Part shown: positions 7,212 through 64,000 of the stretch, piece after piece
Numbering within the stretch: the stretch's first letter is position 1
Layout of the letters: each line of letters starts with the position of its first letter
IMG/VR virus record: IMGVR_UViG_3300019458_000025
Origin: an uncultured virus (IMG/VR IMGVR_UViG_3300019458_000025)
Taxonomy: Duplodnaviria; Heunggongvirae; Uroviricota; Caudoviricetes
DNA length: 64,000 bases
Direction: 5' to 3' (one strand)
Notes under the pieces: model-generated
Told to the model about the DNA's origin: nothing
The model's database searches: none
Seen by the model: only the letters and a program-made list of their open reading frames with translations
Translations under genes and position numbers: made by a program

Positions 7212-7286
7212 ATGTACGAGCAGGACGACATCTACGACTGGTGCGGCCGGGAAGCCGAAGACGCCGCGAAGGACGAGGAGGAATAG
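7212..7286 (+). pseudogene. 24-aa shrunken copy of the acidic protein 6531..6794
   Basis: MYEQDDIYDWCGREAEDAAKDEEE keeps the YDWCGR core and DEEE end; same position before the paralog. Confidence 0.6.
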
Positions 7287-7693: not shown

Positions 7694-7815
7694 AAGCGGG
7701 GAAGCTTCATGTACGAACAGGGAATGGGGGCGGACGGCCTTCCCCCACAGCCGGTCGAATTCATGCGTTGCTGCGCCCGCTGGGAAGCGCTGTCCCAAAT
7801 CGAAGCAAGGCGCAC

Positions 7816-10870: not shown

Positions 10871-11258
10871 CCCGCTTGACCGGCGTCCCGCGCTTCACCG
10901 GGACCGGCCTCCGGAGGATCGTCGCGAATCCCGGGGTCTTCTCGCCCACGTAGGCGCCGGTCACGTTGAAGTTGAAGTATTCGAGGGCGTCGTCGTGCGT
11001 CATCCCGTCGCGCGCGACCAGGATCTCGATGCACTTCTCACGGTCGTAGAGCGCGATCGTCCGGTTGAAGATCTCGGCGTAGCCGATGAGGGCCTCCTCG
11101 AAACCGTCCGCGAGAAGGATCTGCTCGTCCATCGAGGCGAGGATCTCCTTCACTTCCTTGAAGCCCAGCCCTCCGCCAGGACCGAGCGAGCGCGCGACCG
11201 GGCTTTCCCCGGGCCGCTTTCCTCCCGGGGAGTCCTTTGCGCGTTTGCGTGACGTCAT
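10863..11258 (-). CDS. Conserved phage hypothetical protein
   Basis: ADGFEEALIG..YDREKCIEIL..DGMT..DALEYF.FNV.GAYVGEKTP, a motif I recognise from phage proteins. Confidence 0.8.
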   Translation of the reverse strand: MTSRKRAKDSPGGKRPGESPVARSLGPGGGLGFKEVKEILASMDEQILLADGFEEALIGYAEIFNRTIALYDREKCIEILVARDGMTHDDALEYFNFNVTGAYVGEKTPGFATILRRPVPVKRGTPVKRDA

Positions 11259-31207: not shown

Positions 31208-32888
31208 CTATTCCTTTTTCCGCTCGCGGATCATCGCTTCCAGTCGATCGGCCATCGTGTCGATGACTCCCTCCGGGAGAGGAATCACGCGCTTCCCGCC
31301 GAATTTCTCGATCATCGGGTGGTCCTTCGGAAGATGGCCGTGATAGAGGCCGTCCTCCCCCCGCTTTATCTCGATCCCGAGTACCCACATGAGGCGCGCG
31401 ACCTTCCGCGCGAGATCGGACTCGCGGCCTTCGATAACTTCGACGGCGATGTCCCGTGGTCCCTGCTTCGGGGCCTGGATGATCGTCACCCGGAGATGTT
31501 TTCCGACGTGTGCCTTGGCCCAGTCGGCGTCCCGGTCGAGTCCGAAGGCCATGTCACTGCCGTCGTCCATTTCGAGGAGAAGCCCGACGCCAGCCGGTCC
31601 GGCCTCGAATTTCAGGAGCGTACCGGTCGAGACGTCTCTGTAACCGGTCTCGCAGCCGCACTTGAAGGGTTCGTCGCTCATTTCGGTTCTTCCCCCGCTT
31701 GAGGAGCTTCCAGACGTCCCTTTCTATCGTACGGGCAGCCCTTCTTGTGCGCGGCTCCGTCCATCTCGGAATAGAGGTCTATCTGCTGGAGCTTGCATTC
31801 CTCGGTGTGGCATTTCGGGCACGCGAGGACGTCGCCGTTCATGCAGTCGGCGTGCCAGGAAAAGTGGCAATTGAAACAACGGAAGTAGTTCGAACCTCGG
31901 TCGCGCGAAGGGATATCGGTCCCATCGAACCGCTTCCTCGCGACGGCGGCGATGATGTCACGGACTTCCGGATGGAGGTCATCTTCCTTGACCGGGCGGA
32001 CGGAGATCTCCAGGTCGATGCCGACGCCTTTTCCGCACTGGGAGCATATGCCCGTGCGCTCGATCCGGCCGACCGGAACGCCGTATTCTTCGGGGACGTA
32101 GACGACGCCGAGCCGCGCTCCGCAGTTAGGGCAGTCGAAATGGACTTCCGGGACGATCATTGGGCCAACAACCTGAAAAGCCGAACGTCGGGGATTCCGG
32201 ATTCCTTGAGCATGCGCACGAGTTCCTCCGGCTTGTCCTTGGCAAGAAGCGCCCCATCGGGGCCGTCCTTCTTGCCGTCCGGTCCGGCCTTCCGTTCTGG
32301 AAATACGGACCAGAAGCCTCCTTCATGATCCACGACGACGATGCACCAGAGGCCGTCGTTCACCCATTTCATTCCCTGCCGATCGGGAGACCATTGAAAC
32401 TTGATGCCTCTTTCCTTGAACGCCTCGATCGTGGCGGTGTTCATTGTTCACCCATTCTAAGTAGCGGTCGAAGATTCCAGGTACTCACGGGCGGCGACAT
32501 TCCACGCTTTCATACACCCGCATCTGATCTCTTCTTGGTGGACGACACTCAACGGAAGTTGGACTCCCACTAGGTCGTGATACCACCTGTCGTGTTTTTT
32601 GCACGGCATCACCTGCCAAACTGGAGCGGCGAGGGAGGCTAATTCCTCGAACTCGTAAGCCCTTGGATCAAGTGTCATGTTGTTTCCCATGGATACTTTG
32701 CGAGCGGACGGCTATAGGGTCATCCGCAGCCACAACTGTCGCGGGTCGATCCGGATCTTCCGCTCGAATTCGGCAGAGCAGCGCTCCGCGCACTCGGCCG
32801 CCTCCTCCAGGCGCCGTTTCTGCTCCTTCACGGGAAGCCTCATGAAGCGCCGGAACGCCGCGCGCATCTCGCGTTCGGCCTTGGTCAT
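31208..32888 (-). other. Run of small hypothetical CDS: 31208..31681, 31678..32160 (double Zn ribbon), 32157..32444, 32457..32690, 32712..32888
   Basis: Coupled starts and stops; CPNC/CSQC/CFNC/CPKC in 31678..32160. Confidence 0.65.
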
Positions 32889-32922
32889 GGCTCACCTTTT
32901 CTGTGCTTGGGAACGGTGCCCT

Positions 32923-33099
32923 CTACTTTCCAAACCTGACAACGACTATCGGCCATAAGAACGCCAGCGGCAAGAACCACCACCACTTGTTGTTGCGGAG
33001 GGACCACCCGAAAGACCTCCCCCCACACAAGGCCCAGTTGTGGGCGAAAAGAACCACGACGCCGATCAACCAATAGGCCAGAACGATAATCCAGATCAT
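32923..33099 (-). CDS. Small two-TM membrane protein (cassette gene)
   Basis: MIWIIVLAYWLIGVVVLF...FLWPIVVV; bounded by a 9-bp inverted repeat. Confidence 0.65.
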   Translation of the reverse strand: MIWIIVLAYWLIGVVVLFAHNWALCGGRSFGWSLRNNKWWWFLPLAFLWPIVVVRFGK

Positions 33100-33106
33100 G
33101 GCACCG

Positions 33107-33283
33107 TTACCTCTTCTGTTCCTCGCGCACTTGCAGTTCCGTGAAGGCTTCGCACGCCTCATAGCCTTGCTTGCAGACAGCACACTCAGAAGCATCACAG
33201 CCGGGCGCATGGACGATCTTCACGCTCTTCAGCGCGCCGTACAGCTTTGAGGCGACGATCATCCAGTCAGCGGTCACTTCCAT
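33107..33283 (-). CDS. Small Cys/His protein ending EQKR (cassette gene)
   Basis: AAGGAGG RBS; H..C...C..C; stop lies inside the repeat. Confidence 0.65.
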   Translation of the reverse strand: MEVTADWMIVASKLYGALKSVKIVHAPGCDASECAVCKQGYEACEAFTELQVREEQKR

Positions 33284-33322
33284 GCGATCCTCCTTGCACT
33301 TCTCACTTTTCTTGGGCACCAC

Positions 33323-33550
33323 TCACCTTTTCTGTGCCAACGGGTTCGATAGGATGGTCTTAGGCATTTTCCAGCCCATCGTAAACGAGAGGTCCCGGAG
33401 CCGGTCGTAGGCGGCGCCAGCGTTATCCAGTTCTATTTCAGCGCGAACGAACCGCTTTACTGCTGCGCGAAACGCCCTAACGCACTTCGCCTTGGTAATT
33501 ACCTCCCTGTTAAAGGAGCGGGCCGTCCTATACCTCTTTGGTTTTGGCAT
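33323..33550 (-). CDS. Small basic protein ending AQKR (cassette gene)
   Basis: Start and RBS from the upstream repeat, stop from the downstream repeat. Confidence 0.65.
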   Translation of the reverse strand: MPKPKRYRTARSFNREVITKAKCVRAFRAAVKRFVRAEIELDNAGAAYDRLRDLSFTMGWKMPKTILSNPLAQKR

Positions 33551-33572
33551 TCTTTACCTCATCTGGCAATCT

Positions 33573-34145
33573 TCACGCCTTCTGGGCATATTTGTCGTCC
33601 GGAAAGATCGCGACTTTCGCGAGCTTGTCGAGCGTCACCATCTGGTGGAAGGAAAGCCCACGGAGCGTGTCGGCGAAGATCCTGAGGCCGACCTCGGAGT
33701 CGATGTGATAGCTCGTCACGTACGGCTTGAAGAGGCGCGGCTCGGCGTCGAAACGGATGTACGAGGGAACTTCGAGTCGCATGGCCTCGAAGTTCGCCTT
33801 CTCCTCGGCCGGGATGACCTTCTTCCCGTCGTCGTCGAGCCAGGTAACCCAGGGTTCCGCGGGCGGAGGACAGCCGCAGTGACCCGCCACTCGGATATCC
33901 TCCCGGCCCACCGGATCGGCATAGAGCTTGACCGCGATCTCGATGGGGACGAGCCCATCAACCACCCAGTAGGTCCACGCACGGGTGAACTCGAACCCTC
34001 CGGACATTTTCCCCATGACGGAATACTTGACCTCGCCGGTGCTCGATGGGCACGAGACGGCCTCGATCATGGCTCGTTCCAGTTCCCAGCGGATGATCTT
34101 GTCCGGGTCCTTGTGTCCGGCGAGGTTGGTCAGGTGGCTCCACAT
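33573..34145 (-). CDS. Conserved phage hypothetical protein ending AQKA
   Basis: NLAG, F.F.RAW.YWVV.G.VP, IRVAGHCGCP, YHIDSE.GL. Confidence 0.75.
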   Translation of the reverse strand: MWSHLTNLAGHKDPDKIIRWELERAMIEAVSCPSSTGEVKYSVMGKMSGGFEFTRAWTYWVVDGLVPIEIAVKLYADPVGREDIRVAGHCGCPPPAEPWVTWLDDDGKKVIPAEEKANFEAMRLEVPSYIRFDAEPRLFKPYVTSYHIDSEVGLRIFADTLRGLSFHQMVTLDKLAKVAIFPDDKYAQKA

Positions 34146-34376
34146 GATCGAGCGCCTCCACTCCGATCTATCGAGACCCGTGTACCTGGGGAAACTCCAG
34201 ACGCAAGTAGGCCATCGTCGCGCTATCGTGGGGCTCCTTGCAGTCCACGCAGATCGTGTATCCGGGCATAATGCGCCGCTTGCAGTAGTGGCAAAGGACC
34301 CGGCCTTCCGGGTCTCTCCAGGTCCCGTCTTCCTTGAGCCAATCCATCGGAACGTGATGCTTCATGAAAGCCATGT

Positions 34377-34793
34377 CTATTTCGGTCGTCCGACGATCGC
34401 AGGAACGGACTTCATCTTGTTCACGACCGCCATGGCGATCCGGTGCCAGCCGTCGCCGATCGCCATTCGCTTCCCGGGCATGTAGGCAAGGAGAACCGGA
34501 CCCACCTTCGCCGGGTCGTTCAGCCACGCCGCTTCAAGTTCCTGGTAATACTCCGGGAAGTCGGCGTTAGCTTTTTCCTCTAGAAGCCACGCTTCCCATT
34601 CGTCGGGCGGGATGGGCCTGCCGTTGATGGCGACGCCTTGTTGCGTGAACTCCTTCGTGGGGAAATGCCGCACGTAGCTCCACCGGAACCGGTCGGGCTC
34701 CAATGGAATACGCCAATCGCCCTCCGTCTCAGCGTATAAGATGAGTTCACCCTGGGTCCAGGTCTCGTCTTGCGCCGACCGCTGGTTGGGCAT
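34377..34793 (-). CDS. ParB/Sulfiredoxin-like domain protein
   Basis: PVLL...IGDGWHRIA.A....VPAIVG. Confidence 0.7.
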   Translation of the reverse strand: MPNQRSAQDETWTQGELILYAETEGDWRIPLEPDRFRWSYVRHFPTKEFTQQGVAINGRPIPPDEWEAWLLEEKANADFPEYYQELEAAWLNDPAKVGPVLLAYMPGKRMAIGDGWHRIAMAVVNKMKSVPAIVGRPK

Positions 34794-34794
34794 C

Positions 34795-36576
34795 TTAGTC
34801 CTTTTTCAAGACCAAGGGTTCGGAGCGCACACGATCCGCGTTGCGGAGCGCGTCCGTGATCACCCAGGAGTGTCCGGCGCTCGGGATGTCCCCGGTCACG
34901 GCGCTGATCAAGCGCGCCAGGGCGTCCTCCAGGGCCTTGCACCGCGCAAGGGCGCTTCGGAGGTTCGCGGCGATATCGAGGCCCTTCTCGCAGGCGTAGG
35001 TCAGGCTTCCGTCGTAGCTCGCCTGTAGGAGGGTCAGTTCGTTCCGGAGCCGTTCGAGTTCCGGCTGGGCGCATTCGCAGTAGATGGGCGCGATGTCGGA
35101 CGATTTCACTCCGATTTCGACTCCGCAGAAATCGGGCCGGTTGTGCGCGTGACGGCAGCGTTCGCACATAGGAGACCTCATTTCCACCAGGTCAGGACGA
35201 CACCCCCGGGGACGTCCCACCCGGCCGCCTTCATGGACGTGCCGTCCGCCAGGAAGCGGCGCCCCCAGGTATACCGCGCGTCGCCTCCCTCCAGGTTCGA
35301 GATCTTGGTGATTTCGCCCCAATCCAACGCCAAGGCCAGCGCACGGATCGCCTCCTCCGGCGTCTTCCCGACCGCGAAGATCTCCTCGGCGAGAGCCGTC
35401 CTCCTGGCCTCCTGGGCGACCTCGGAGAGGGTTCTCAAGATCTCTTCTTCGCGAACCTGATGGATGCTCTTGTCCTCCGGGGCTTCCCGGATCTGCCAGA
35501 GCCGTTCCCGGAGGCCCTTGGCCACGAAGTCGAGTTCTGCGACGGGCATGGCTTCTCCTCTTCCAATGTTCCTACATGTTTGAGCCGGAGGAGTTTGTCC
35601 TCGGCCCGGATCATCTCCCGGAGTCCCTGCTCGATGAGGCGGACGGCCGTCTCCTCCACGGTCAGGCCATAATAGCCTTTTCGGAAAAGCTGCCGCAGAA
35701 GATCCGCGATCACCGGATGTAGCTCGATCCTGAGACGTTCGACTTTCATGGCTCCTTATCCTTGGTGCGCGACATCGCGGCTATCTTCTGCTCCATGAAG
35801 TTCTGGAGTTCCGGCAGAATCTCATCGAAGAAGACCTCCGCCGCGCAAGTAAGGTCGGGCTTCCCCTCGGGTTTGCTCCTGAGGGAACGGCCTACGCGGT
35901 CATTCCACAGGTTTCCGCCAAGGGCGGCAAGATTCCCGCGCAATGCGAAAGCGTTGTATGTGGTCTTCACTCCTTCATCGTCTCCGTTTTCTGAAGTTAT
36001 CGTGACAATCCCTTCACATCACCTCACTCGTATCTCCACTTGCTCGCTGGCTCGTTCGGATTAAGATGCTTCTTCTCCCATTCCCGAAGGACCATCTCGA
36101 AGCATACCCGGAAGCATGTATCCCAGAGCGATCCGTCCGGATTGCGGATGCCTTGCTCGGTGTTCCGGAGCGCCTGCTTGACCGCCCGATCATTCTCCCA
36201 GACGGAGATCCACGCGAGCGCATCGGGCAGGGTGGGCTCCTTGCAGGCACGCGCGACCGCTTCATGGACATTCATAACTCGACTACCTCGTCAGCGATTA
36301 TCTCGAATCATTCTTTCACGCAACGACGCTCCTTCAGCGGCCACTGTAGTACTTCCTCTTCATGAAGGAGCAGGTCCAGCCGTCCTCCTTGCACTTCGGG
36401 CACTGCGGCACGCTCGGAGCCTCATGCCCACTCTCTTCGTGGTGCCGATACCAGTGGGCCATACCGTGCGACTTGGCAGCCGCCACCTGGAAGCCCTGCC
36501 TAGTTCCGCCAAGGCTCACCGCCCTTTCGCATCCAGGGACGGTACAGGAAGCGACTCCGATGACAGGAGCTTTCAT
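34795..36576 (-). other. Run of small hypothetical CDS: 34795..35181, 35178..35549, ..35749, 35746..35970, 36024..36275, 36334..36576
   Basis: Coupled ORFs with RBS; no family recognised. Confidence 0.55.
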
Positions 36577-36597
36577 AAAATTATTCTCCCGCGCCAA

Positions 36598-36810
36598 TCA
36601 CCTTTTCTGTGCCACCTTCCATCCCGGAGGCGGCGTGTACCAACCATTGTCCGCAAAGTCCGCAAGCTCGTCAGTCCAGCAGCACGCGAGGTTCGAGCAC
36701 TCGATGATCGTTAAGTCGGCCAACGACTCGAAATCAAAGGCGCTCCCGCAGGCGGGACAGTTCGTTACCTCGCCTGACTTAATCCTCTGATACCAAATCG
36801 CAACAGGCAC
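36598..36810 (-). CDS. Zn-ribbon mini-protein ending AQKR (cassette gene)
   Basis: GTG start inside the repeat; CPAC...CSNLAC; stop inside the repeat. Confidence 0.65.
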   Translation of the reverse strand: MPVAIWYQRIKSGEVTNCPACGSAFDFESLADLTIIECSNLACCWTDELADFADNGWYTPPPGWKVAQKR

Positions 36811-36831
36811 TCTTTACCTCTCTCGCGCCAA

Positions 36832-37041
36832 TCACCTTTTCTGTGCCATAATCGGCTCTTCCAAGACCGCCTGTTCCATTCGAGCCAAGCAAGAAGGATG
36901 GAACCACGTCGTAGTTGTTGCAACTAGCTCTTGCCCTTTGTAAGTCTTATAAACAGCCTGTACCGCAACAGGAGTACGCGGACCTTCTGCTGGACCCTTA
37001 CCGCACACAAAACATTTGTCCATTCGATCCTCACAAGGCAC
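36832..37041 (-). CDS. C2HC Zn-finger mini-protein ending AQKR (cassette gene)
   Basis: CFVC...HPSC; stop inside the repeat. Confidence 0.65.
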   Translation of the reverse strand: MPCEDRMDKCFVCGKGPAEGPRTPVAVQAVYKTYKGQELVATTTTWFHPSCLARMEQAVLEEPIMAQKR

Positions 37042-37085
37042 TCTTTACCTCTTCTGGGGCCAATGACCTCTGTGCCAACGTAGTC

Positions 37086-37499
37086 CTAACGAGAATGCTT
37101 CGATACCCACCACGCAGATCTCCAAGCCTTTTCGCTGATCGAGACGCCCTCTTCTTGTGCGCGACGTTGCGCCAGCGCCGGAGACAGGGCTCTATTCAGG
37201 TATTCGACGGCTTTGGCTCGCTCAAGCCCGAACTCGTATTCTTCGAGAATGATCGGCTCGCTGTATCCTCCCCAATGACGCCAGTAGGTCTTGCTGATTC
37301 CGTACTCTATAAAGCCCTCATTCGGGCGGTTCTCCTCGATCCAGGTTTGCGCCTGTCGGGAGGCTTCCACTTCATCCTGCGAGTCGGTCGAAACCCAAAG
37401 TAGCGTCTTCCCGCGTGGCTTTTTGAAAGACACGGAATACGCCCATGATACCGGACGATCTTCCCATCCAGGTGCCCTATAGCTTTTGCGTTTGGTCAT
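37086..37499 (-). CDS. Hypothetical protein
   Basis: GAGGGAG RBS; followed by a repeat copy. Confidence 0.65.
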   Translation of the reverse strand: MTKRKSYRAPGWEDRPVSWAYSVSFKKPRGKTLLWVSTDSQDEVEASRQAQTWIEENRPNEGFIEYGISKTYWRHWGGYSEPIILEEYEFGLERAKAVEYLNRALSPALAQRRAQEEGVSISEKAWRSAWWVSKHSR

Positions 37500-37560
37500 G
37501 TCTCCCTCTGGCACTCATCCTCACGGACACATTCGAGGACGGTCTTTCCATGTCAATCGG

Positions 37561-37965
37561 TCAAAGGCGTTCCTTCTGGTATTCCGGAGCCGCCGCGAAC
37601 GTGACGCCCTGCGGCATCTCACGGAACTTCTTGCACGACACGCACTTCCCGACGATGATCCCGATCAGGGATGAGTGCTCCACGATCTTCCTTGTGGTGA
37701 CGTAGGTACCCCCGCACGGGCACTTGAGCCCTTCGACTCGCAGACGCGGCGACCCTGGTCCCATGAGGCGGATCGCCACGATCGGCCAAAGGAAGGCATG
37801 GGCGATGATTGACCCCATTTCAAGCCCGCGACGCGCTCCCGTCATCTCGCTGAACCTCTTCCTCAAGTACTGGAGGGCGCCGCTTTCGGGGCGCAGGGCA
37901 TAGAAGATGAGGCCGACGAGAACGTAGGAACAAAGCCCAAGGACGATCGCATCACCAGGTTTCAT
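37561..37965 (-). CDS. Membrane protein with C-terminal Zn ribbon
   Basis: Two hydrophobic segments (FLWP); CPC...CVSC. Confidence 0.65.
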   Translation of the reverse strand: MKPGDAIVLGLCSYVLVGLIFYALRPESGALQYLRKRFSEMTGARRGLEMGSIIAHAFLWPIVAIRLMGPGSPRLRVEGLKCPCGGTYVTTRKIVEHSSLIGIIVGKCVSCKKFREMPQGVTFAAAPEYQKERL

Positions 37966-38225
37966 GACCGTCTACATCGGGAGCTTCAACTGATTCGGGT
38001 CATCGTAAGGCTTTTCGGGTTCAGGGAAAGGCTGGAGGATCTGACGGACGGTCCGGTCCTCCTCCTCGCCGTACGGGATCGCGTCCTTCCATTCCTCCGG
38101 GACCTTGTCGATATCCCGGACCTCGTGGGCGATCACGCAGTCCGGCCCCTCGTTCTCGCCTGCGCTGGCTTCCGCCAGGATCTCGGCCTCACGCTCGTCC
38201 CGGACAAGGACATAGAGCGTGTAGG

Positions 38226-38552
38226 TCACTTCGACGGCGTAGAGCTTGAACACGTCGGTTTCCCATTCATCCAGCACACGGCGTCTTCGATCAGGACCGG
38301 CTTCCATCCCCATCGGGAAAGGATGGCGACCATTTTACCCAAGGGCGTGGGAACCGCCACTCGAAATCCGGACGCCTCGATCGCGCGGACGAGCGCGGAG
38401 AAGTGCCCGCGCCCTTCATGGACGCTCTCGATGAAGCTGATGAGGATCACTTCTCCATCTTTCCAGAGGTAGGAGTCGCTCGCAAAGCGCTCGCGCGTGA
38501 AGCCCCAGGCTTCCGGAGCGGCCCCTATCTGGATGATACCATCCGCGATCAT
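38226..38552 (-). CDS. Possible GNAT-like protein
   Basis: ISFIES..EGRGHFSALV resembles acetyl-CoA motif A. Confidence 0.45.
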   Translation of the reverse strand: MIADGIIQIGAAPEAWGFTRERFASDSYLWKDGEVILISFIESVHEGRGHFSALVRAIEASGFRVAVPTPLGKMVAILSRWGWKPVLIEDAVCWMNGKPTCSSSTPSK

Positions 38553-38555
38553 GGA

Positions 38556-39026
38556 TCAACGTCCGTTCTTCAGCTTCATCAGGAACTCATATGCGAGCCG
38601 GTTCCAGCGGGCGTCTTCGAGCGCATGGTGCTCCATCGACTCCTGCGCCGGGAGCTTCGGGTTTCCGAGATCATCGCAAAGCTGCTTGATGTCGCGACAG
38701 TACATCGGCCAGCCTTTCGGGAGGTCGATCATGCGCCCGAATAGCTGACAGAGGACGACCCAGTCGTAGTCGGCGTAATAGCCCCATACTTCTGGACGTT
38801 CCCGGCAGAACGCGACGATCTCGTCGCGGATGACCGCCCGCGGTTTCCCGGTGCTCTGATCGACGTGCGGGAGAACGTTCTCCTTGACCCATTCGTTCGC
38901 CTTGGACGGGTCGCATTCTGAGGAGACCGCGTAGTATTCCCGTCCGTCCTCGGCGACGATCCCGATCGAGATGAGGTCGATGGTGAGGCCATCCTCGATG
39001 AACTCAGTGTCGAACCAATGCTTCAT
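38556..39026 (-). CDS. DEDDh 3'-5' exoribonuclease (Rv2179c/RNase AS-like)
   Basis: FDTEF, LISIG.V, WGYYADYDWV, HHALEDARW; in frame with an upstream Zn ribbon from 39278. Confidence 0.9.
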   Translation of the reverse strand: MKHWFDTEFIEDGLTIDLISIGIVAEDGREYYAVSSECDPSKANEWVKENVLPHVDQSTGKPRAVIRDEIVAFCRERPEVWGYYADYDWVVLCQLFGRMIDLPKGWPMYCRDIKQLCDDLGNPKLPAQESMEHHALEDARWNRLAYEFLMKLKNGR

Positions 39027-39322
39027 CGAGCGACCTCGCTCAGATGCTCCGGCCGATACCCGTGATGTTCGTGGTTCATTCTCCTTGGCGGATTCCTCCG
39101 CAGAAACCGTCTGGATTGAATACCGCCCGCACTGAGTACAGGTGACCCGTTGGTAGGCCGGGAGCGAGAGAGGAACGGTTTCGATATCTTCCAGGGACAA
39201 ACGAAAGGTCTTGGAGCCGCATTCACATGTTCTTGTGAACCTCTCCAAAAACTTCCTATTGAACTCATCACTTGCCATCGCGTGCCTCGGCCCGCTTTCA
39301 GCTTCCGAGAGGAAGCTGCAAG

Positions 39323-39604
39323 TTAACACATGGGTTGATGGGAAAGGCCGCTACCCACATCGACCCCAATAATATCCGCCTGATAAAAATCGGGCGCGTC
39401 AAACAGACTATCGGCAGCCTTGAACGCCTCGGCCTTCGTCTCAAACGGCCTTCCCGTCTTCGCGTCAACGACAATTTCGCACTTGCGTTGGGTGATGCCA
39501 TCAATGCTACAGGCAGACTCGTAGAGAACGACAAATCCATGCCCCTTGATAAGGCGAGCCGCTTCTTGGCTGACCTCTACCCGTCTGAGTGTTACCTGTT
39601 GCAC
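39323..39604 (-). CDS. Hypothetical protein
   Basis: AAAGGAGG RBS, GTG start; lower GC. Confidence 0.6.
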   Translation of the reverse strand: MQQVTLRRVEVSQEAARLIKGHGFVVLYESACSIDGITQRKCEIVVDAKTGRPFETKAEAFKAADSLFDAPDFYQADIIGVDVGSGLSHQPMC

Positions 39605-39614
39605 TTGTCCTCCT

Positions 39615-40146
39615 TTGCAGCTTCCATAACGAAGCCGCAACGCCTCTTCTGTTCAACTACCTCGGAAACCACACCACCGGGATCTTGCGGGCGCCCTTTC
39701 GGTAATAGTCGTGAAGACGATGCCAACCGTCTTGAAGGGTCTCATCCTCGAACGGGCTCAGGATTACAGGCCAGCGGTTCTTTGGCGGGTAATCCGGAAT
39801 ACCACCCAGCTTCAGATACCACTGGTGGTAGCTCTCGAAGTCTCCGAATTCCTCCGCAATGTCAGGGTCTTCGGCGATTTCCTTCGCAAGAATGGCTGCG
39901 GGAATCTCCGAGTATCCGAAGTTGCTCTTGGCGAGTTGTCTCTGGAGGTCTCGCAGATCTCCTTTGTACTCCCCCTCCGATACATATGTGAAAATGGCCC
40001 GCTGTGCCGGGCGAGGTAGTTCGTCATAGGGAAGAATCTGGCCTCCGACACGCTCGATTAGTTTCCTGTTACGTCTGCTGATCGCCATCTATGCCCCCGG
40101 CACTCTTTAACTCCTTGTGCTTGCAGCTTCGTTATGCAATCTACAA
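39615..40146. repeat. Inverted pair of 26-bp quasi-palindromic sites flanking a ParB-like gene
   Basis: 39615 TTGCAGCTTC-CATAAC-GAAGCCGCAA; 40121 TTGCAGCTTC-GTTATG-CAATCTACAA. Confidence 0.6.
39657..40088 (-). CDS. ParB/Sulfiredoxin-like domain protein
   Basis: WPVIL...LQDGWHRL..Y...IPVV. Confidence 0.7.
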   Translation of the reverse strand: MAISRRNRKLIERVGGQILPYDELPRPAQRAIFTYVSEGEYKGDLRDLQRQLAKSNFGYSEIPAAILAKEIAEDPDIAEEFGDFESYHQWYLKLGGIPDYPPKNRWPVILSPFEDETLQDGWHRLHDYYRKGARKIPVVWFPR

Positions 40147-40150
40147 TGCC

Positions 40151-42908
40151 TCATTCATTGTTGGCCTTCTTTGCGCGTTCCACGTTTTCAACGTCACGCT
40201 TGGCGCGCTTCAAAGTTTCGGCCGTCCGCCTTTCCAGGTATTCGAGGATGACCGTGCGGTTATGCCAGATGAAATCCTCGTACTTCCTGAGACCGTTGCA
40301 AGGACACCCGATCACGGCCTGCTTGCCGTCGATGGTGCCCCAGGAGATCATGTCGTAGGACGGGTCTTGGATGTACTTCTCCGGGTTGTTCTTCGCCTTC
40401 TCTAGAAGCTCTTCCAGTTCCCCTTCCCCGTAGATTCCGCTCTCCATCGTCGCGAAATGCGTGCGCCCGCAGAGTTCGCAGTCGATGACGAGCGAGCCTG
40501 CATTGATGATCACGCGCTCGAAGAGTTCGCTGGGCGGTTTCGGATCGTCGGCCATGGATCTCCCCCTTCTATTTCGCAGGAACCTTCTTCGCCAGCCGGT
40601 CGGCCAGTTGAAGAGCGTAGCCTCCGAAATCGTTCACGCTCGTCCGGTGTTCCTCGTTCCATGCCAGAAGCGCGTCGCCCTGAAGAGGCTCCTTCGCCCG
40701 GTCGCGGTGGATCATGAACGTGCGGAGGCTCGTGATTAGCTCCTCGCGATGCCGGTCGAGGGCTCCCTTCATCGGCTCCCCGAACTGCTTCTCGAAATCG
40801 GCCTCCGGATCTCCGCCGATGATGTAGAAGCCGGTCATCCACTCGTCGCGCTTGGCCGGGGTCTGGCCGCGCCCGACGAGGAGCGAGACCAGGAACGCGA
40901 TCTTGTCGGACGGAGCCGCGAACGTCCAGGCGTCGCTCGGGTTAACAAGCTCGTAGATCATGTTCACGTTCCATCTCCTTGAGCGCCTCGTTCGTGACCT
41001 TGATGATCCGGAGGCTCTTCTTGGTCTCGTCCTCGCGGTAGCAGTTCACATAGGGATGCGGCCCGTTGTTCAGCCAGACCTTGCCGCCGAAACCGAGCGC
41101 CCCGCAGAAACGGTACTCCAGCGTGCGCGCGCGCCCGTACTCGTCCGCCTGGATCACGAACATCTCCCGGCCTCGCTCTTCGGCCCCGGCATGCTGGACA
41201 AGGATGTCCCAGATCTTCGAGAGGCGCTCCTTGTCGAGCCTGCGCATGCGGTTCCATTCGCCGTAGGCCATGAGCTTCGCCTCGGACCCGCCCCAAACGT
41301 GCTCGATCTCGTCGGACTCCCGGCCGCACTTCGGACAGACGGCCTTGGCGCCCATGAGATCCTCGGCAAGCCGGTAGACCGAGGCATCCGGGAAGCTGCC
41401 GCAGGAGCATGGCAGGACATCGACCTTCGTCATCGGCTCGCCCCCTATTTCCTGCGGCGAAGGCAAAGCGTGTACGTATCCCACTGGTCTTTCGGGCCGA
41501 GGACGATGATCTTCCCATTCGCCTCCAGCCTTCTCATGCAGAGCTTGACCGCCAGGTGCATCGACCCGGGCTTTTTCTTGTGCCGGGCTTCCAGGTAACG
41601 GGCGATCCAGTCGGCCCCAGCCTGGTGGTTGATGGCGTCCTCCAGGATGGCAAGGATCGTCTCCTCCGTGGCGATGGGAGTCGTCATGCGGTCGGTTCTC
41701 CCCACGAAATGAGAGGATGTCATCGGTCCACTCAGGGCTGATAGAGCCTCAAACCGAGTTTCCGGCACTTCTCGATGGCCTCGGCGCTGTCTTTCACGGG
41801 CCCGAGGCCGATCTTGTCTTCGAGGCCGATCGTACACCATCCGCTCCGGTGGGCGTTCAGGTGGGACCGGCAGTAGACCCATTCGCCGAAGATCACGTCG
41901 TCGGCGAGTTTCTCGTCCCGGGTCTTCACCCTGCCACGGATCGCCTGGGCCGCGCAGGACCCGCAGGCTTGATGGCCCCAGAGCCCGTGGACGCAGAGCC
42001 GGTTCTTCTCCGAGTAGGCCCGCGTGGGCTCGTCGGGCGCGACGATACGGTCGCAGGACTCCGCGAGGTCGGCGCAGGCCGCGCGCTCGGCCGCGAGATC
42101 TGAGTTGTGCGCTGCCACGACCGCTCCCGCCTGTTCCGCGGTGAGACCGGTGACGACGCCGTTCGAGGTTCGGACGAGGAAACCCAGCTTGTCCGAGTTC
42201 TCCACGACCCAGGGACGGAGATCTACAGGCACCGGATGATCTCCCCGGCGATGACGTCGGCCGCGTTCTTGACCACGTTCTTGTCCGGGACGTTCGCGTC
42301 AACGGCCTGCTTCCCGACATTTGCGGCGATCGTAGCGCACCGGTCCCGGGTGTCCCGGACCAGGCGCCTGAGGTCGGCCAGCAGGTTGCATTCGTGGACG
42401 CCCGAGGGGTGATCCGCGGCAGGACACCACTGAGCCGCGATCGCCTCCGGCGTCAGGATCTCATCCTTTGGCGCAGATTGGGAAGCGAAGGAATTAGGCG
42501 CCCGCCGGGCGATGTCCGGGACGCCCCGGCATGGTTCGGCGCCGATCGCGTTTGCGAATTCCTTGGGGTCCACGCGGGGCGCCTTCTTGCCGACGACGTT
42601 GATCCGTTTCTCTCGTTTCATGGCTACTGGTTCTCCGGGACCCGGATGGAGTTCCAGCCATTGCCATCCGGAGCCAGTTGGAACTCCCCCTTGTTGACGT
42701 ACTCGATCTTCTTCGAGAAGCAGACCGCGCAATGGCAGTTGTTGGGAGAATAGGAGTACTGGAACGTGTCATGGATGAACTTCGCAAGCCCCTTCGCCGC
42801 GAACAGGGCTCCGGCGTGGTGTTCGGCGGAAGGCGCCATCGTGCCGTCGATCCAGCGGCCGGTTTCGGCCAGGAGCGTATGAACGATGTGGGCCGCGTCG
42901 GGACTCAT
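40151..42908 (-). other. Run of hypothetical CDS: 40151..40555, 40569..40967, 40942..41433, 41445..41688, 41732..42232, 42223..42621, 42624..42908
   Basis: Tightly coupled ORFs, several with CxxC pairs. Confidence 0.6.
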
Positions 42909-43945
42909 GCGCGCGCCTCCTGGGCCAGGCCGTTCACTTCGATCGCCTGCCTCATCCAGTGTCCGTGCGTCTGGACGTGGCCTTTCCGGACGACCTTCCC
43001 GACGACGTTCCGGTAGTCCTTGAACGGGAAAGCCCGCGAGATCCGGACCACGTAGCCCTCGCATGGGTCGCCCGCATGCTCGTGGGGCTCGAAGTCGCGG
43101 AGCCGCGTTTCGTCCCAAACCCCGCGCCAGAAGACCGGGACGGTCTTGAGTCCGAGAAGCTCCGCATACTCCTGGGTCTCGTCCCAGGAGAGGCAGACGT
43201 TCCGCTCGTTCCAGATCGAATGGACCAGGAAGTGGGCCGGAAGAGTCCGGTACCGGATGGAATGGACCGCGTAGAGGTTCTCGCCGCACACACGCCATCC
43301 CTCCGGGATCTCGTGGCCGATCGTCCGGTGGATCTTCCAGAGCCAGTCCCGGGACGGATGGGGCGGAGAGTCGATCGACCGGGCGTGAAAGCCGTCCCGG
43401 TAGAGGCTCGTCTGCTCGCCGTCCATCTTGACCGTGACGACGACGTCCTCGCTCTCGAACCCGGCGACCGATTCCATCATGCGGTCGTCGTCGGTCCCGC
43501 CAGGGCTCCAAGGGAGATGATAGGTCCGGGGATGCTTCACCCGGTTCGTGAAGAGATGGAGGACCGGCGCGATCACCTTCTGGACGCTCTCGTCGTAGAA
43601 TAGCTCTCCGCGGAGGCGTCGGCCGTTTGGAAGGATCGGGTCCCCCCACTTGTCATAGACCTCGTCCGGATAGAGATGGGGCGGCAGGATCACGCGCTCG
43701 ATTCCGGCTGCCTTCCGGACGTCCTCGCAGGAGAGCACCGTGGACTCCGCCGCCAGATGGTGCTCTTGGCAGACGGAGACGCCGTTATCGAGGTAGGTGC
43801 CGCCGTCCGGCCAGAGCCTGCGCTCGACGATATGATGCGCATCCTTGGCCGGAGCGCCGCAGACCACGCACTTATGGCCGTCGCGCTCGAAGACCGCGGT
43901 CCGGAACTCGTCCCGGGTGAGCAGGCCCCCGCTCTCGGGCGTCAT
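42905..43945 (-). CDS. HNH nuclease-like domain fused to an RNA ligase (Rnl2-like)
   Basis: FERDGHKCVVC..DAHHI..N.V.VC..HH; K.PRT.HLPWSPG, KMDG, CGEN, EGYVVR, K.VR. Confidence 0.9.
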   Translation of the reverse strand: MTPESGGLLTRDEFRTAVFERDGHKCVVCGAPAKDAHHIVERRLWPDGGTYLDNGVSVCQEHHLAAESTVLSCEDVRKAAGIERVILPPHLYPDEVYDKWGDPILPNGRRLRGELFYDESVQKVIAPVLHLFTNRVKHPRTYHLPWSPGGTDDDRMMESVAGFESEDVVVTVKMDGEQTSLYRDGFHARSIDSPPHPSRDWLWKIHRTIGHEIPEGWRVCGENLYAVHSIRYRTLPAHFLVHSIWNERNVCLSWDETQEYAELLGLKTVPVFWRGVWDETRLRDFEPHEHAGDPCEGYVVRISRAFPFKDYRNVVGKVVRKGHVQTHGHWMRQAIEVNGLAQEARA

Positions 43946-44030
43946 GGACTTCCTTTCTGACGTGTGCCAGATAGGGTACAGTTTTGATGGTCCTCGCGCA
44001 AGCGAATTCCGGATCTCCCCCTCCGCACGG

Positions 44031-46042
44031 TCAAATGTTGATCCGCCAGTCCTTCTCGAAGCTGTGGGCCTGGAAGAGGTCCCCCAGGGCCTTGGCGAGC
44101 GCGACGACGGCGGCGGCATCGAGACCGGAGAACGTGCCGCCTGTCCGGAGGTAATAGGTCCCGGCATTCGGGTCCCGGCCGACCACGACGCCCTCTGGAA
44201 GTTTGAGATCGGCCAGTTCGCGGGCCATGATCTCCTTGCTTTCGGCCTCCTTGCGCTCGCGTTCCTGGGTCGCCTTCTCGCCCGCCCGCTGGCCTTTGAT
44301 GCGGTCTGAGATGTCCTTCACGATCTTCTCGATGTTCCAGGTGCCGTCCTGGCGCTTCGGGAAGGTGACCTTGCGGCGCCCCCCGCCGAAGTAGCCCCAG
44401 TGGATGACCACTTCGGCGTTGCCCGAGTGCCGCCCCCGGAAACTCCGGATGAACTCGTGCTGGACGATCACGTTGATGGAGAACCCCTCCAGCCAGAAGG
44501 ACCGGTGCGGTCCCGAAGAAGCCGCATAGTCGATCTTGGGCTTGATCCCGGTCGCCTTCCGGACCTCCTCGACCAGCCGGTCGAAAAGGGGACCGGCCTC
44601 GGCCTCGTACTTCTCCTGGAGCGTCCGCTCCTGGTCGGCTTCGTTCGCGTAGCCGTTCATGGCCTTCTCCTCTCCCGTCTACTTCCAGGCCCCGGCAGGA
44701 CGCTCGCTCAGGATCTCGCGAGCGCGGCGCTCCTGGGAGGCGTTGATCCGCACGTCGAGGCGCCGGACACCGGCCGGATGGAGCGCGGTCGGGACGCCCC
44801 GGACGTTGAGGTACCTGGAGATGCGGTGGGCCTCCCGAGATTCATCCGTGGCCACGACCACGAGAGGGTGCCTGGCCGCGTCGATCGCGCGCTCGATCTC
44901 CGAAAGCCCCTCGTCGGCTCGGAGGTAGGCCAAGGAGTAGAGTTCCTCCTTGCCGTTCTCTTCGACGACCACATAGGAGCCGCGCTCGATCGCCTGGAGA
45001 TCCTGGGCGTCGGGCTTGCGGCCTTCGAGCCGTTCGATGTCCCACGGAGCGGCCATCCGGAGGATCTGGACCTTGGCGCCGAAGCTTCCGTAGATCACGG
45101 TTTCTCCTCCGTCTTCTGGCCCGACCCATCCTTCCAGCCCATCTCGTAGGCCAGCTTGACGATCTCGCGCAACTCCGGCGGCCGGAGGACCCGGTACGAG
45201 CAGGCGCCTCCTCCGTGGCCCTTCCGCCCCGCGAAGAGGCGCTCGACCATCCGCGTGGCGACGGCGTCGGCCTGGTTCATGGCTGCCTCGTCCCTTTTGC
45301 CTTGTGGGACCCGCTCTCGGCATCCTGGGCGATACGGAGGAAGGCCACGTAGAACCCCTCGGCCCCGTAGGTGTGGAGCCAGCGCGCCCACTCCTTCGCG
45401 TCCTTCGCCTCTGTCTTCACGCTCACGGTGGCGCTCCTTACTTGTAGCACCGGCAGTGGTCGCACATCTTGAGGAGATACTCCTCGTTGTACTTCTCGGT
45501 GTTGCCGGGATAGCTCGTGTAGTCCACCTGCAAGACGCCCTGGAAGTGGCCCCAGTCCTTGGGTTCCCCCCTGTAGACGCGCTCGCCGCACTCCGGGCAG
45601 TCCCATGCCTCGAAGAGCCCATCGGCGAGGAGCTTGGCGAGGCGCTCCTTGTCCTCGGCGCCCGGCTCCCGGACGTTGAACCAGGCGAGGAGGTCTTCCT
45701 GGTCCTGCCCGTCCAGTTCGTCCCAGGTCAGCTTCGTTTGCATCGTCAAACCCCCACGTTCGTCCATCCCATGTCACGGCTGACCACGACATCCGTGCGG
45801 ACGGCCTTCGCAATCCCCCGGAGCCAGCGCTCCGAGTCTTCCGGTTGCTCAGACGCCTTGACGAAGACCTCCCGTCCGTCCTTGAGGCGGAGCATGTACC
45901 GGATGACGAAGGTCCCATAGGCGACCAACTTCCCGAGGGCGACGACGTCGCCGTGGTCGATCTCGACCGTCCGGCCGCCAGGGTACGGATGGCCGCCGGG
46001 TTTGCCTCCGGCGTGGGCCGCCTCCACCACCGTGAGCTTCAT
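44031..46042 (-). other. Run of hypothetical CDS: 44031..44660, 44679..45098, 45095..45280, 45438..45743, 45746..46042
   Basis: RBS-preceded, coupled ORFs; no family recognised. Confidence 0.6.
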
Positions 46043-54329: not shown

Positions 54330-54635
54330 CTACGCCTTGTTGTAGCCCTCGACTCCACGGGCCTCCCGGTCGGCCTTGCGATGGCTCAGCCAATGAAGGG
54401 CCTCTTCCAGCATCGTGATCGCCAGAGAATTCTCCCGACACCGGAAGGGAGCGCCCTCGCGGTTGAAGCCGTTCAGCCGGTCGATCAGGATGCGAACCAC
54501 ATCGGTAATCTGGCATCCGTTCACGCCAAACTCCTTCACCGGCCCGAGTTGGAACTTGATCTTGATGTGCTCGCGCTCGATCAGAGCGGGGCTTCCGTCC
54601 ATCTGCTCCTGCGCCTTCTCGCGGTCGTCCATCAT
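54330..54635 (-). CDS. Tad1-like anti-defence signalling-nucleotide sponge
   Basis: I.FQ.GP.KE.GVNG..D...I.IDRL..F...PF.CREN..A.T.LEEALHWL..R..DR..RGVEG matches the Tad1 family pattern as I recall it. Confidence 0.75.
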   Translation of the reverse strand: MMDDREKAQEQMDGSPALIEREHIKIKFQLGPVKEFGVNGCQITDVVRILIDRLNGFNREGAPFRCRENSLAITMLEEALHWLSHRKADREARGVEGYNKA

Positions 54636-54848
54636 CTGCTCCGAATCATTGTTCAGTGCCCTTGCGCAACCTCTTTTGTGCGGGACGATTTTTCCGCTCT
54701 TCTGCGAGCTTGTAAAATTCATCGCACATTCTCGGAAATGCGCCAAAGACGACCCGCGTTCGGCACCAATCACAGCTATCGACGTGCGCCTGTTGCTTAC
54801 GAGTCGGCTTAGGGCCAGAATAAAAGCCAGCCATTCAACCCTCCGTGC

Positions 54849-55082
54849 CTATTGCGCCTCTACGCGCATTTCTTCCGGAACGCTCCGAGTGTTCCACCAG
54901 TTGACTGCCGCCGTCTCGTCACGGGCACTTGGGCCACTCGCCCCACACACCCTGCATATCACCCAGCAAAGGCCACCCGCCGCTGTTCCAGAATCACACA
55001 CGTACCCGTTTCGCTGTTTGCAGAACGCGCACGCTTCCAATCGCAGATCACGCTTGGGCCCGATCTCGCGCGAACGTGACAT
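54849..55082 (-). CDS. Lar-family restriction alleviation protein
   Basis: L.ACAFC...WVIC.VCGA.GP......A..WWN.R. Confidence 0.75.
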   Translation of the reverse strand: MSRSREIGPKRDLRLEACAFCKQRNGYVCDSGTAAGGLCWVICRVCGASGPSARDETAAVNWWNTRSVPEEMRVEAQ

Positions 55083-55684
55083 CCTGCTCCTCTTCATCGA
55101 GCGCCGACGCTGGCCGTTGACAATAGACATAAATCATTCCTCTATGTCCTGTATTCCACCAGTCCGCACACACGGCAGACCCACGCTGTTTCGCCGCAGC
55201 AGTAATCTTCGTGACTGATAATCCATTCGTGCTCGTGATTCACGGCCTTCTCCGAATGTATTCTTCCATCGCTTCCAGGCGCTCCTTTGCCTCAAGGTTC
55301 CGCATGATCTTGATGGTACGGCAACGGCACTCAAGCTCCGGATCGGCCCGGCATGCCACACAGTTATCCGCGTAAGGGCACCCACGGAAGTGTGAGGCTT
55401 CGGCTACGAACTCCTGGCGACACCAACCACATTTCCTCACGTTTCCGGTCATAGCTTACTCCGAATTATTCTAAGGTCGAATTCGCCCGCCCTCGATGGG
55501 GACGCACCGCTTTGTCTTTTGGGGAACGACAGGGATCTCCCCGCCACGCGCCGCACTTGGGGCACTGCGGAAGATCACGTCTCCAAGCCTCCTCGATTGG
55601 CGAATACTTGGCGTTCGCTCGTGTGATGTTCCGTCTGGACCCCTCATTAGGCATTGCTCACCCTCTTGCGCTGACTATTCAGGC

Positions 55685-55843
55685 GGTGCCTTCTGGGGAG
55701 CCGGGGAACTTCCCCCCGAATCCCCCACCACAGGGGCATTTGTCCTCGGACCCCTCCGGGGCGGTCAACCCCCGTACTCGTCCGATAAGCCGCTACACTA
55801 ATCACGGCACTCCCCAAAAGGCACCGACTGGTCATTCGGTGCC
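55685..55843 (-). ncRNA. Candidate structured RNA with tRNA-like acceptor/T-arm geometry
   Basis: 16-bp closing stem GGTGCCTTTTGGGGAG/CTCCCCAGAAGGCACC enclosing four hairpins; lies in a gap between genes. Confidence 0.6.
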
Positions 55844-55940: not shown

Positions 55941-56342
55941 TTAGAGCGCCTTCCGAAGGGCGACGCCCTTGGTCTTGAGCGCGGCCTTGCAGATGATCCC
56001 GGGGGTCATCCACCGGACCGCCTTCGAGAGAACGACGGTCCGGGAGACCACGCAGAGCTTGGTGAGGAATCGCATGAAGACGGCCTCCGATTCTCGGGCG
56101 AGCCGTTCCCAGACGGTCCAGGCCGCCGAGATCTCGCTGCTGAACCGAGGGCATTGCGCCCAGGCTTCCTCGGAAGAGGCGTGCCATCCCCATCCGAAAA
56201 AGCCGGTTGCGCGCCCGATCGGGCGCCCATGAGGGCCGACCAATTGGTACTTCCGCGGATACTTCGGGTTGGCCGAGGCTTTCCGGACGACCTTGATGCC
56301 CATGATCTTCTCCGCGACCAGACGGTCAAGCGTCTTCTTCAT
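55941..56342 (-). CDS. Phage ABA-sandwich (BC1872-like) domain protein
   Basis: LDRLVAEKIMG, PRFSSEISAAW.V.ERL, P..ICKAALK. Confidence 0.7.
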   Translation of the reverse strand: MKKTLDRLVAEKIMGIKVVRKASANPKYPRKYQLVGPHGRPIGRATGFFGWGWHASSEEAWAQCPRFSSEISAAWTVWERLARESEAVFMRFLTKLCVVSRTVVLSKAVRWMTPGIICKAALKTKGVALRKAL

Positions 56343-63900: not shown

Positions 63901-64000
63901 TCGCCTTCCAGAATCCATCCAGTTCGAGTTGCCCGGATTCCACGAGGTCGAACTCCATGAGTTCCCTATAGTTGAATTTGTTGCGATACTCCAAGCATTC

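Follow-up and report, generated by a model that had tools for sequence, protein, structure and literature searches.

Junction elements of the window

The DNA analysed here, a stretch of 64,000 nucleotides from an uncultured virus of the Caudoviricetes (IMG/VR record IMGVR_UViG_3300019458_000025; the whole stretch is referred to below as the window), appears to be a segment of a large phage genome and contains a repeated element at seven gene junctions. The junctions form two short arrays, at 32.9-33.6 kb and 36.6-37.1 kb, both on the minus (coding) strand. The genes of the window lie on the plus strand to ~10 kb and on the minus strand beyond, and the repeat is therefore to be read on the minus strand, where the units of ~24 nt found at the junctions take the form GGCAC-AGAARAGGTRA-N3-4-GTGCC. 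The consensus of the element is 24 nt long, (G)TT-GGCACAGAAG-N4-WWGA-RTGCC. Conservation of the element extends to phage lineages that have hardly any genes in common, and the genes between its copies are hypervariable ORFans. Its copies in the window (J1 to J7) and a possible relic are given below, with the cassette genes g0 to g4 described further on, Shine-Dalgarno sequences abbreviated to SD, and scores taken from the covariance model introduced in the next paragraph.

J1, 32884..32907, minus strand: AGCACAGAAAAGGTGAGCCATGAC, non-coding, after the TAG of g0; its ATG (32888) opens the gene at 32712-32888; 7.2 bits.
J2, 33097..33122, minus strand: GGAACAGAAGAGGTAACGGTGCCATG, EQKR-TAA end of g1, ahead of the g0 ATG; 13.2 bits.
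J3, 33315..33338, minus strand: GGCACAGAAAAGGTGAGTGGTGCC, the best copy; AQKR-TGA end of g2, with SD and GTG start of g1; 25.1 bits, E 9e-6.
J4, 33546..33588, minus strand: tandem double; a degenerate left part ends a 190-aa protein (AQKA-TGA), and the full unit is TTGCCAGATGAGGTAAAGAATGCC with the g2 ATG; 9 bits.
J5, 36577..36613, minus strand: GGCACAGAAAAGGTGA ends g3 (AQKR-TGA), then a decayed second unit and SD, with an ATG at 36576; 14.5 bits.
J6, 36806..36847, minus strand: tandem double; unit a ends g4 (AQKR-TGA), and unit b is GGCGCGAGAGAGGTAAAGAGTGCC with SD and GTG start of g3; 13.5 bits.
J7, 37037..37076, minus strand: tandem double; non-coding, after the TAG of the gene at 37086-37514; unit b is GCCCCAGAAGAGGTAAAGAGTGCC with SD and GTG start of g4; 18.1 bits, E 0.0017.
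Possible relic, 40099..40122, minus strand: right half TAAAGAGTGCC intact, upstream of the gene at 39657-40088; noise-level score.

The exact core GGCACAGAAAAGGTGA is present three times (tops at 33338, 36613, and 36847), with near copies at 32907 (one mismatch) and 33122 (three mismatches), giving five matches, all on the minus strand, compared with an average of 0.46 over 100 shuffles, none of which gave more than 3 (0/100 reach 5). A covariance model trained only on 51 copies from outside the window, and then run on the window, returned the two arrays as its six best matches, all on the minus strand (33311-33342, E 9e-6; 37033-37065; 36593-36617; 36806-36847; 33096-33126; 33542-33572). A real junction repeat in a single orientation, as proposed in an earlier sequence-only reading of this DNA, is borne out by both results, as are the doubles proposed at 33546, 36806, and 37037, each of which consists of two units in tandem (33546-33588, 36806-36847, and 37037-37076). 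The weaker copies named in that reading did not hold up, with the one at 40099 scoring at noise level (40095-40125; 7.1 bits, E 6.6), as does 32864-32906 (E 6.1), and no copy detected by the covariance model at 39640 or 55650. The start region of the gene at 37086-37514 (37510-37530; GTGCCAGAG, after GAGGATGA) resembles the right half of the element and goes undetected by the model; it may be a further relic.

In the tandem doubles, unit one is truncated after GGTGA, where the upstream protein ends (GCA CAG AAA AGG TGA, read as AQKR and stop), and unit two is complete, with GAGGT and a start codon, GTG or ATG, that is followed by CC and so gives the MP with which the next protein begins. The proteins ending at the window junctions accordingly close with AQKR (three times), EQKR, or AQKA. 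A meaning of the AQKR and MP ends at the protein level was rejected because non-coding copies exist, at 32884-32907 and 37061-37076, both downstream of a TAG stop, and the earlier view that the unit acts at the level of nucleic acid stands on these same copies. The possibility that the repeat is a local ribosome-binding-site consensus only was also rejected, with other genes of the window having GGAG or GGAGG contexts without the arms.

Core-to-core distances in the window are 215, 216, 231, 216, and 213 bp, reproducing the near-constant ~215-bp spacing originally described, and the chance of five random small window genes falling within an 18-nt range is ~1.5e-4 (post hoc). Outside the window, however, element spacing runs from 168 to 743 bp, and the size selection at ~215 bp that had been proposed is not seen there.

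Cassette genes

The genes enclosed by the element, together with the longer gene that ends in J4, are as follows.

g0, 32923..33099, minus strand: 58 aa, hydrophobic, probably a membrane protein; ORFan, GC 0.546.
g1, 33107..33322, minus strand: 71 aa, ORFan, GC 0.573.
g2, 33323..33550, minus strand: 75 aa, basic, ORFan, GC 0.547.
g3, 36598..36810, minus strand: 70 aa, CxxC zinc-ribbon-like motifs; the same cassette lies between two canonical elements in metagenome locus L200.
g4, 36832..37041, minus strand: 69 aa, CxxC motif, ORFan, GC 0.502 (0.435 at third codon positions).
190-aa protein, 33573..34145, minus strand: widespread family, phrog_35792; the AQKA tail is private to the window copy.

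The five enclosed genes have a GC content of 0.50-0.57, compared with a mean of 0.613 (standard deviation 0.041) for 97 window genes, and no similarity is detectable among the five proteins or in their DNA outside the element, in keeping with their first description as unrelated and lower in GC. No Pfam or PHROG family, and no function, could be assigned to g0-g4, and a blastn search of 32.6-37.6 kb against 50,697 phage records gave zero matches. Tandem duplication of one mini-gene together with its junction, the coding parts then diverging fast and the junction being conserved, would suit the near-constant cassette length in the window and the 29 nt that J5 and J6 have in common, but its probability is close to negligible, with the five proteins and the DNA beyond the element lacking detectable similarity, g3 having close homologs elsewhere (84-87% identical) whereas its neighbours have no such homologs, and the element being present in unrelated phages.

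The GCA-CAG frame of the element contains TAA or TGA, and proteins reading into it therefore end in AQKR. This tail is read-through into the element, and is supplied by the element and not by the protein family. Homologs of g3 end in GWVVA or GWKV, with GWKV-stop or GWKVRED-stop in loci without a canonical element and GWKVAQKR-stop in L200, where the element is present, and an AQK tail is found in 0/119 listed homologs of the 190-aa protein.

Occurrence in other phages

The same element is found in eight IMG/VR contigs (G001 and G003-G009; 28-73 kb, three with terminal repeats at 69-73 kb), with 3-4 strict and up to 10 loose copies per contig, in a single orientation within each contig, and with reversed-pattern controls in the IMG/VR scans giving 0. 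These eight sister contigs represent one ~70-kb lineage, each encoding a primase, a helicase, a Sak4-like annealing protein, and one tyrosine recombinase (PF00589). Two metagenome contigs of a third lineage (L200 and L203) also carry the element. The relationship between these lineages is slight: G001 (68 kb) and the window have no common protein at E<1e-4, bar one marginal match, the other sister contigs have few small genes in common with the window, and L200 and L203 have nothing else in common with either the window or the eight contigs. The small genes in question are 41448-41735 (76% aa identity to a G004 gene that is itself element-flanked), 10866-11258 (56-68% aa to genes of G003, G007, and G009), 58990-59367 (54% aa), and 56342-56965 (31-33% aa), with two of the G004 counterparts preceded by the element and the window versions lacking it.

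An alignment of 59 sites holds information only at positions -2 to 24, with random flanks, and follows the pattern (G)TT GGCACAGAA[G/A] ... [A/T][A/T]GA[G/A]TGCC. The arms GGCA[CT] and [AG]TGC at exactly 14 nt occur 2-10 times per strand in the eight contigs (2 in G006; 4-10 in the other seven), compared with 0-2 times for the other spacings tested (N10-13 and N15-18), and across all 2.9 million IMG/VR contigs the generic arm pattern gives 12 matches, only in six of the same eight contigs. The centre between the arms varies, with some types containing an SD (GAGGTA, AAGGTG) and others none (GACCTA, GCCGAA, GGCAGA, AGGCTG). At more than 20 sites with an SD-less centre (GACCTA, GCCGAA, or GGCAGA) both arms are kept, with a separate SD of the usual kind and an ATG a few bases further on, from which it follows that the element is more than an SD. 

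When 185,579 prokaryote species genomes were scanned with a similar pattern, the 53 matches were all single, their centres were unrelated and none had another site nearby, so that no host or prophage was found. The exact 16-mer in IMG/VR, with 93 loci, was set aside as mostly single chance matches in low-GC contigs, and locus L094 was rejected as a repetitive protein gene. The motif strings of the element were not found in the text of 8.4 million papers and preprints, a search with subscription-only literature outside its range. A perfect palindrome at 55820-55843 of the window (GGCACCGAATGACCAGTCGGTGCC; GGCAC/GTGCC arms, 14-nt spacing, 8-bp stem) has no AGAAG or SD centre, and similar perfect-stem variants are seen in the sister phages, some followed by TTGACA.

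Stop, Shine-Dalgarno, and start signals

Junctions were counted over the 59 sites using open reading frames (ORFs) of at least 40 codons and a stop range of -9 to +20 of the element. The upstream ORF stops within this range at 57/59 sites, with 22 of the stops ahead of the element (16 with TAG) and 35 inside it (18 at +13, the AQKR frame), and the next ORF opens at the element's own ATG or GTG at 31/59. The proposal that the unit supplies the upstream stop, the SD, and the start is upheld by these counts, and by the AQKR, EQKR, and AQKA ends read at the window junctions; proteins at other site types end in AQKG, AQKAD, AQKPN, or AQ-stop, and such ends are common in the eight contigs. In geometry, the stop lies 4 nt ahead of the start, or a TAG lies ~22-26 nt ahead, with the SD in between in the common types. 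The bias towards TAG just before the element (16/22; sites in G001, G003-G009, and L200) often takes the form TAGGTT-GGCAC, or of TA completed by the first G of the element, and such a preference ahead of the element is unusual for GC-rich genomes.

The remaining 28/59 sites retain RTGCC with no long ORF starting there, and the start codon alone therefore does not account for the right arm; since the arms are kept at these sites, something must read them. Position 20 of the element is a purine in 58/59 sites.

Hairpin, promoter, and terminator tests

The complementarity of the arms allows an RNA hairpin to be drawn with a GGCAC/GUGCC stem, the SD in the loop, and the start codon in the 3' arm, in which translation of the upstream ORF would be needed to expose the start; such a hairpin, with a loop containing the SD, had been offered as the alternative in the sequence-only reading. 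The stem is 5 bp with a 14-nt loop (-3.7 to -6.4 kcal/mol), the predicted minimum free energy structure of J3 is exactly this hairpin, and some sister-phage variants have perfect stems of 8-10 bp. However, the J3 fold (-6.3 kcal/mol) has a z-score of 0.07, with 97/200 shuffles folding at least as well, and over 49 distinct sites 76.4% of cells are paired compared with 76.9% in shuffles. Covariation over these 49 sites (score 0.049) is reached by 390/500 shuffles, with two pairs never varying, and the outer and inner pairs are broken in 12/49 and 10/49 sites respectively, with no compensation. J1 and the second unit of J4 are unable to form the stem, and Rfam gave 0 matches at E<=5. The hairpin reading is thus very unlikely.

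No sigma-70-like promoter was found at the window elements, the 1 promoter-like site detected (2.5 expected) lying elsewhere, and no terminator-like site was found there; at 24 nt, the element is too short to accommodate -35 and -10 hexamers 16-18 nt apart. Resemblance to sigma-54, extracytoplasmic function sigma, or T7/SP6-like promoters was dropped owing to misfits of spacing and sequence and to the start codon inside the element, and N4-like early hairpin promoters, considered for the ~70-kb contigs with direct terminal repeats, were dropped as G001 has no ORF for a giant virion RNA polymerase.

These results bear on the possibility that the element serves in regulation only and contributes nothing in particular to shuffling, be it as a DNA operator of the stoperator kind (see below), an RNA operator, or a compact promoter starting at the RTG purine and giving leaderless or short-leader mRNAs, with cassette borders coinciding with it only because the site lies at gene borders. 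With their constant 14-nt spacing, the GGCAC/GTGCC arms make up the sort of dyad seen at dimer sites, the arms are kept with SD-less centres and where RTG opens no long ORF, the near-invariant purine at position 20 would suit a transcription start, and some copies lie 9-18 nt upstream of TTGACA. Additionally, 8/8 sister contigs encode an integrase and are therefore probably temperate and repressor-regulated, and the global enrichment of breakpoints at the element, given below, is weak. Nevertheless, we consider a purely regulatory role unlikely. The upstream stop falls at the element in 57/59 sites and a long ORF opens at RTG in 31/59, which excludes a transcription start downstream of that codon at the latter; the window elements have no sigma-70-like promoter or terminator; no regulator gene common to the lineages was found; and it would still have to be explained why the arrays are hypervariable, why L203 carries a scar of g3, and why homology around g3 ends inside both flanking elements.

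Possible cassette exchange at the element

A scan of metagenomes with a g3 alignment returned four loci. In L200, g3 lies between two canonical elements 216 bp apart (DNA identity 85%), and homology to the window is limited to L200 620-839, equivalent to window 36819-36600, with both ends inside the flanking elements and the neighbouring genes unrelated. The centre types flanking g3 stand in opposite order in the window and L200, and type-matched exchange is therefore not required. L203, from the same data set as L200, and with its end overlapping the L200 start by 17 nt, retains only the last 64 bp of g3 and the element, after the stop of an unrelated gene.

Within the ~70-kb lineage, G003 and G007 are 95-97% identical, with the array forming their main difference. 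One high-scoring segment pair (HSP) between them ends at the 3' edge of an element in both, the next begins 2 nt later, one ends inside the next element, and one HSP of 43 nt is the element alone. Only 8/44 array ORFs have a homolog in any sister contig, compared with 149/238 outside the arrays (Fisher p 4e-8), and with length-matched ORFs (45-160 aa, looser threshold) the difference remains at 12/38 compared with 84/151 (p 0.011).

The two sequencing runs covering the region of the window (X1 and X2) were used as Logan contigs only, and these break at 36607-36636, the 29-nt repeat common to J5 and J6. One X2 contig places a J5-type element and 9 other letters ahead of a diverged homolog of the gene at 32457-32690, a joint spanning 3.9 kb, and is read only as showing a relative with a J5-type element before this homolog, and nothing more. 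A 7.6-kb joint (32829 to 40404) was discarded because its support consists of 22 letters from a foreign contig of high depth, and a 600-bp joint (38197 to 38798) has only 22 letters on its shorter side.

Taken with the junction counts, these observations make it somewhat more probable than otherwise (roughly 0.55) that the element is a portable junction of stop, SD, and start that also acts as a short-homology crossover point, with a logic like that of the promoter-early stem-loops (PeSLs) of T4-type phages and a position like that of the start-associated sequences (SAS) of mycobacteriophages. Crossover would take place at the element between co-infecting phages because it is the only shared sequence in the arrays, and such short-homology exchange could move expression-ready cassettes without a dedicated recombinase. 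Each tandem double may combine what is left of the 3' end of one cassette with the complete 5' element of the next, and the window's two arrays look imported, given both these doubles and their lower GC. Consecutive mini-genes would, from the geometry of the element, be coupled in translation by termination and reinitiation. A factor, probably phage-borne and perhaps a protein acting on DNA or RNA, would read the outer arms GGCACAGAA and GAGTGCC. On the whole, the repeat is real, is common to unrelated phages, and marks borders at which small genes of no assigned function appear to be swapped between phages. The idea of shuffling is partly supported, and the element, which is found far outside the window too, is a junction repeat of regulatory kind that serves at the same time as a border between modules.

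Several points weigh against this reading. Over all HSPs, ends within 5 nt of an element number 12/578, compared with 5.8 +/- 3.1 for random site positions, a weak excess, and phage gene borders are mosaic borders anyway, so that the coincidence of breakpoints and elements may be partly trivial. Of the cassettes searched for outside the window (g2, g3, and g4), g3 is the only one seen in two contexts, with g4 having no relative except itself and g2 none in IMG/VR, the sole collection searched for it; an IMG/VR search for related loci with the 190-aa protein, g4, and g2 gave no usable locus. The X2 joint of 3.9 kb is supported on one side by 34 letters, which are the repeat itself. Furthermore, the arms are conserved without covariation and in a fold no more stable than shuffles, no common protein tied to them was identified, and 28/59 sites keep RTGCC where no long ORF starts.

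A rival reading is integron-like, site-specific capture, in which the 24-bp element, resembling a tyrosine-recombinase core in its 9-bp arms and 6-bp centre, would be the target of a recombinase that inserts or exchanges cassettes. The 9-6-9 layout, the imperfectly inverted arms, and the several centre types found in the same order in sister phages are as expected of such sites, the cassettes are promoterless, co-oriented, and element-flanked, and one PF00589 recombinase is encoded in each of the eight sister contigs within a few kb of element copies, with one copy in G001 (L097:12537-12568) directly upstream of the recombinase gene. One integrase per temperate phage is, however, ordinary, and no recombinase, transposase, or reverse transcriptase family is matched by any of the 116 ORFs of the 64-kb window (including PF00589; E<=1e-3), confirming the absence of a recombinase noted at the outset. 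The tandem doubles differ from the single hybrid sites left by reciprocal crossover, and the centres double as SD, stop, and start, which a crossover region need not do. The doubles and the reversed flank types of g3 speak against a precise, type-matched, site-specific crossover and fit short-homology or illegitimate recombination better. Capture of this kind is accordingly held to be improbable, and its more specific form, in which the element is the core site through which phage tyrosine recombinases exchange expression-ready ORFan cassettes among co-infecting unrelated phages, quite improbable; if true, the latter would amount to a phage-borne integron-like system with sites doubling as translation signals.

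The attC sites of integrons are imperfect inverted repeats of ~57-141 nt with R''/L''-L'/R' boxes and a GTTRRRY core. The arrays resemble integrons in that the cassettes are co-oriented (all on the minus strand), promoterless, unrelated, and bounded by a repeat with inverted ends. In contrast, conservation of the element is confined to 24-27 nt, far shorter than attC, with GGCAC/GTGCC arms, no R or L boxes, and no GTTRRRY, it carries translation signals, and no IntI is present in the window. Gene shuffling, as first proposed, thus stands in so far as cassette content differs between genomes and breakpoints fall inside the repeat, and falls in so far as a dedicated integron-like machine was meant, there being neither a window recombinase nor boxes of the attC type.

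Relation to known phage junction repeats

PeSLs of T4-type phages are reportedly the subject of a 2014 study by Comeau et al. (PMC4122927). As described in the available part of Arbiol et al. (2010, PMC2839356), the repeated PeSL motif takes in the stop of one gene together with the SD and start of the following one, and its copies are concentrated in hyperplastic ORFan regions; PeSLs combine a strong sigma-70-like promoter with a stable terminator stem-loop in AT-rich T4-like myoviruses, with PeSL-PeSL recombination driving insertions, deletions, and replacements between close relatives and giving rise to mini-circles. The present element is similar to PeSLs so described in spanning the upstream stop, SD, and start and in being concentrated in hypervariable ORFan regions (57/59 and 31/59 sites; 8/44 compared with 149/238 ORFs). 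Breakpoints at the element are clear for g3 and for several G003/G007 borders, but the enrichment over all HSPs is weak (12/578 compared with 5.8 +/- 3.1). The element differs from PeSLs in its length of 24 nt, in having no promoter or terminator, and in occurring in GC-rich phages and in lineages with almost no common genes.

The SAS and extended SAS (ESAS) of Cluster K mycobacteriophages consist of a 13-bp sequence (GGGATAGGAGCCC) with symmetric outer bases and an SD core, 3-7 bp upstream of starts (Pope et al. 2011, PMC3203893, as far as the source was available). The same part of that source describes a short asymmetric repeat that sometimes holds the upstream stop, is found in one orientation, only in the non-structural part of the genome and ahead of varied gene families, and is absent from hosts, and in 2025 its function was still said to await experimental verification (PMC12699233, from the section available). 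The element is comparable to SAS in its short asymmetric form with symmetric outer bases, its SD core, its inclusion of the upstream stop at some sites, its link to genes of different families, its position at start codons, its single orientation, its place in the non-structural region, and the lack of any multi-site locus in the 185,579 genomes. However, it is longer (24 nt) and unrelated in sequence, with the SAS consensus GGGATAGGAGCCC unmatched at up to 2 deviations by an element of the form GGCACAGAAG-N4-WWGARTGCC; it includes the start codon, has an SD centre that can be replaced with the arms kept, and occurs in unrelated lineages. Cassette exchange is not claimed for SAS in the available portions of PMC3203893 and PMC12699233.

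In Cluster A mycobacteriophages, according to the sections available of PMC9283540 and PMC6550527, repressor sites known as stoperators, asymmetric and 13 bp long, are distributed across the whole genome. The element resembles stoperators so described in having many copies of a short site at gene junctions of temperate phages, in one orientation relative to transcription, but differs in being clustered in ORFan arrays and in overlapping the stop, SD, and start.

Small phage ORFans are often host-takeover or anti-defence genes with a rapid turnover that is poorly explained, and such genes are bounded here by a 24-nt adaptor of stop, SD, and start. If the element is both an expression signal and a crossover point, it would offer a simple plug-and-play route for gene flow between unrelated phages of one host community, and a far more compact version of the PeSL idea would then apply outside the T4-like phages. 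The arms, being conserved, point to a factor that reads them, and the element could be used as a search handle for hypervariable accessory-gene arrays in metagenomic phages.

Other features of the window

Most ORFs of the window have no assigned Pfam or PHROGs family; those assigned include SSB, RNA ligase, RlaP, a 3'-5' exoribonuclease, PP2C, and NAPRTase-like, Acb2/Tad1-like, and Lar-like proteins. The genes for RNA repair and RNA processing are the following.

42905-44167: RNA ligase.
63157-63918: RlaP nucleotidyltransferase.
38556-39029: Rv2179c-like 3'-5' exoribonuclease.

The nearest relatives of the RNA ligase (52-56% aa) are found in phages of 317-485 kb, and the 420-aa window protein has ~80 N-terminal aa beyond the region matching phage ligases. 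Neighbouring genes at 54333-55130 give a weak match to the Acb2/Tad1 hairpin domain (E 4e-5, under the curated cut-off) and a match to Lar-like restriction alleviation, and may form an anti-defence cluster. Finally, the genes at 6791-7177 and 7241-7690 are tandem paralogs (62% aa identity), with a direct repeat of 229 nt at 6765-6993 and 7260-7488 in the same region (6765-7700).

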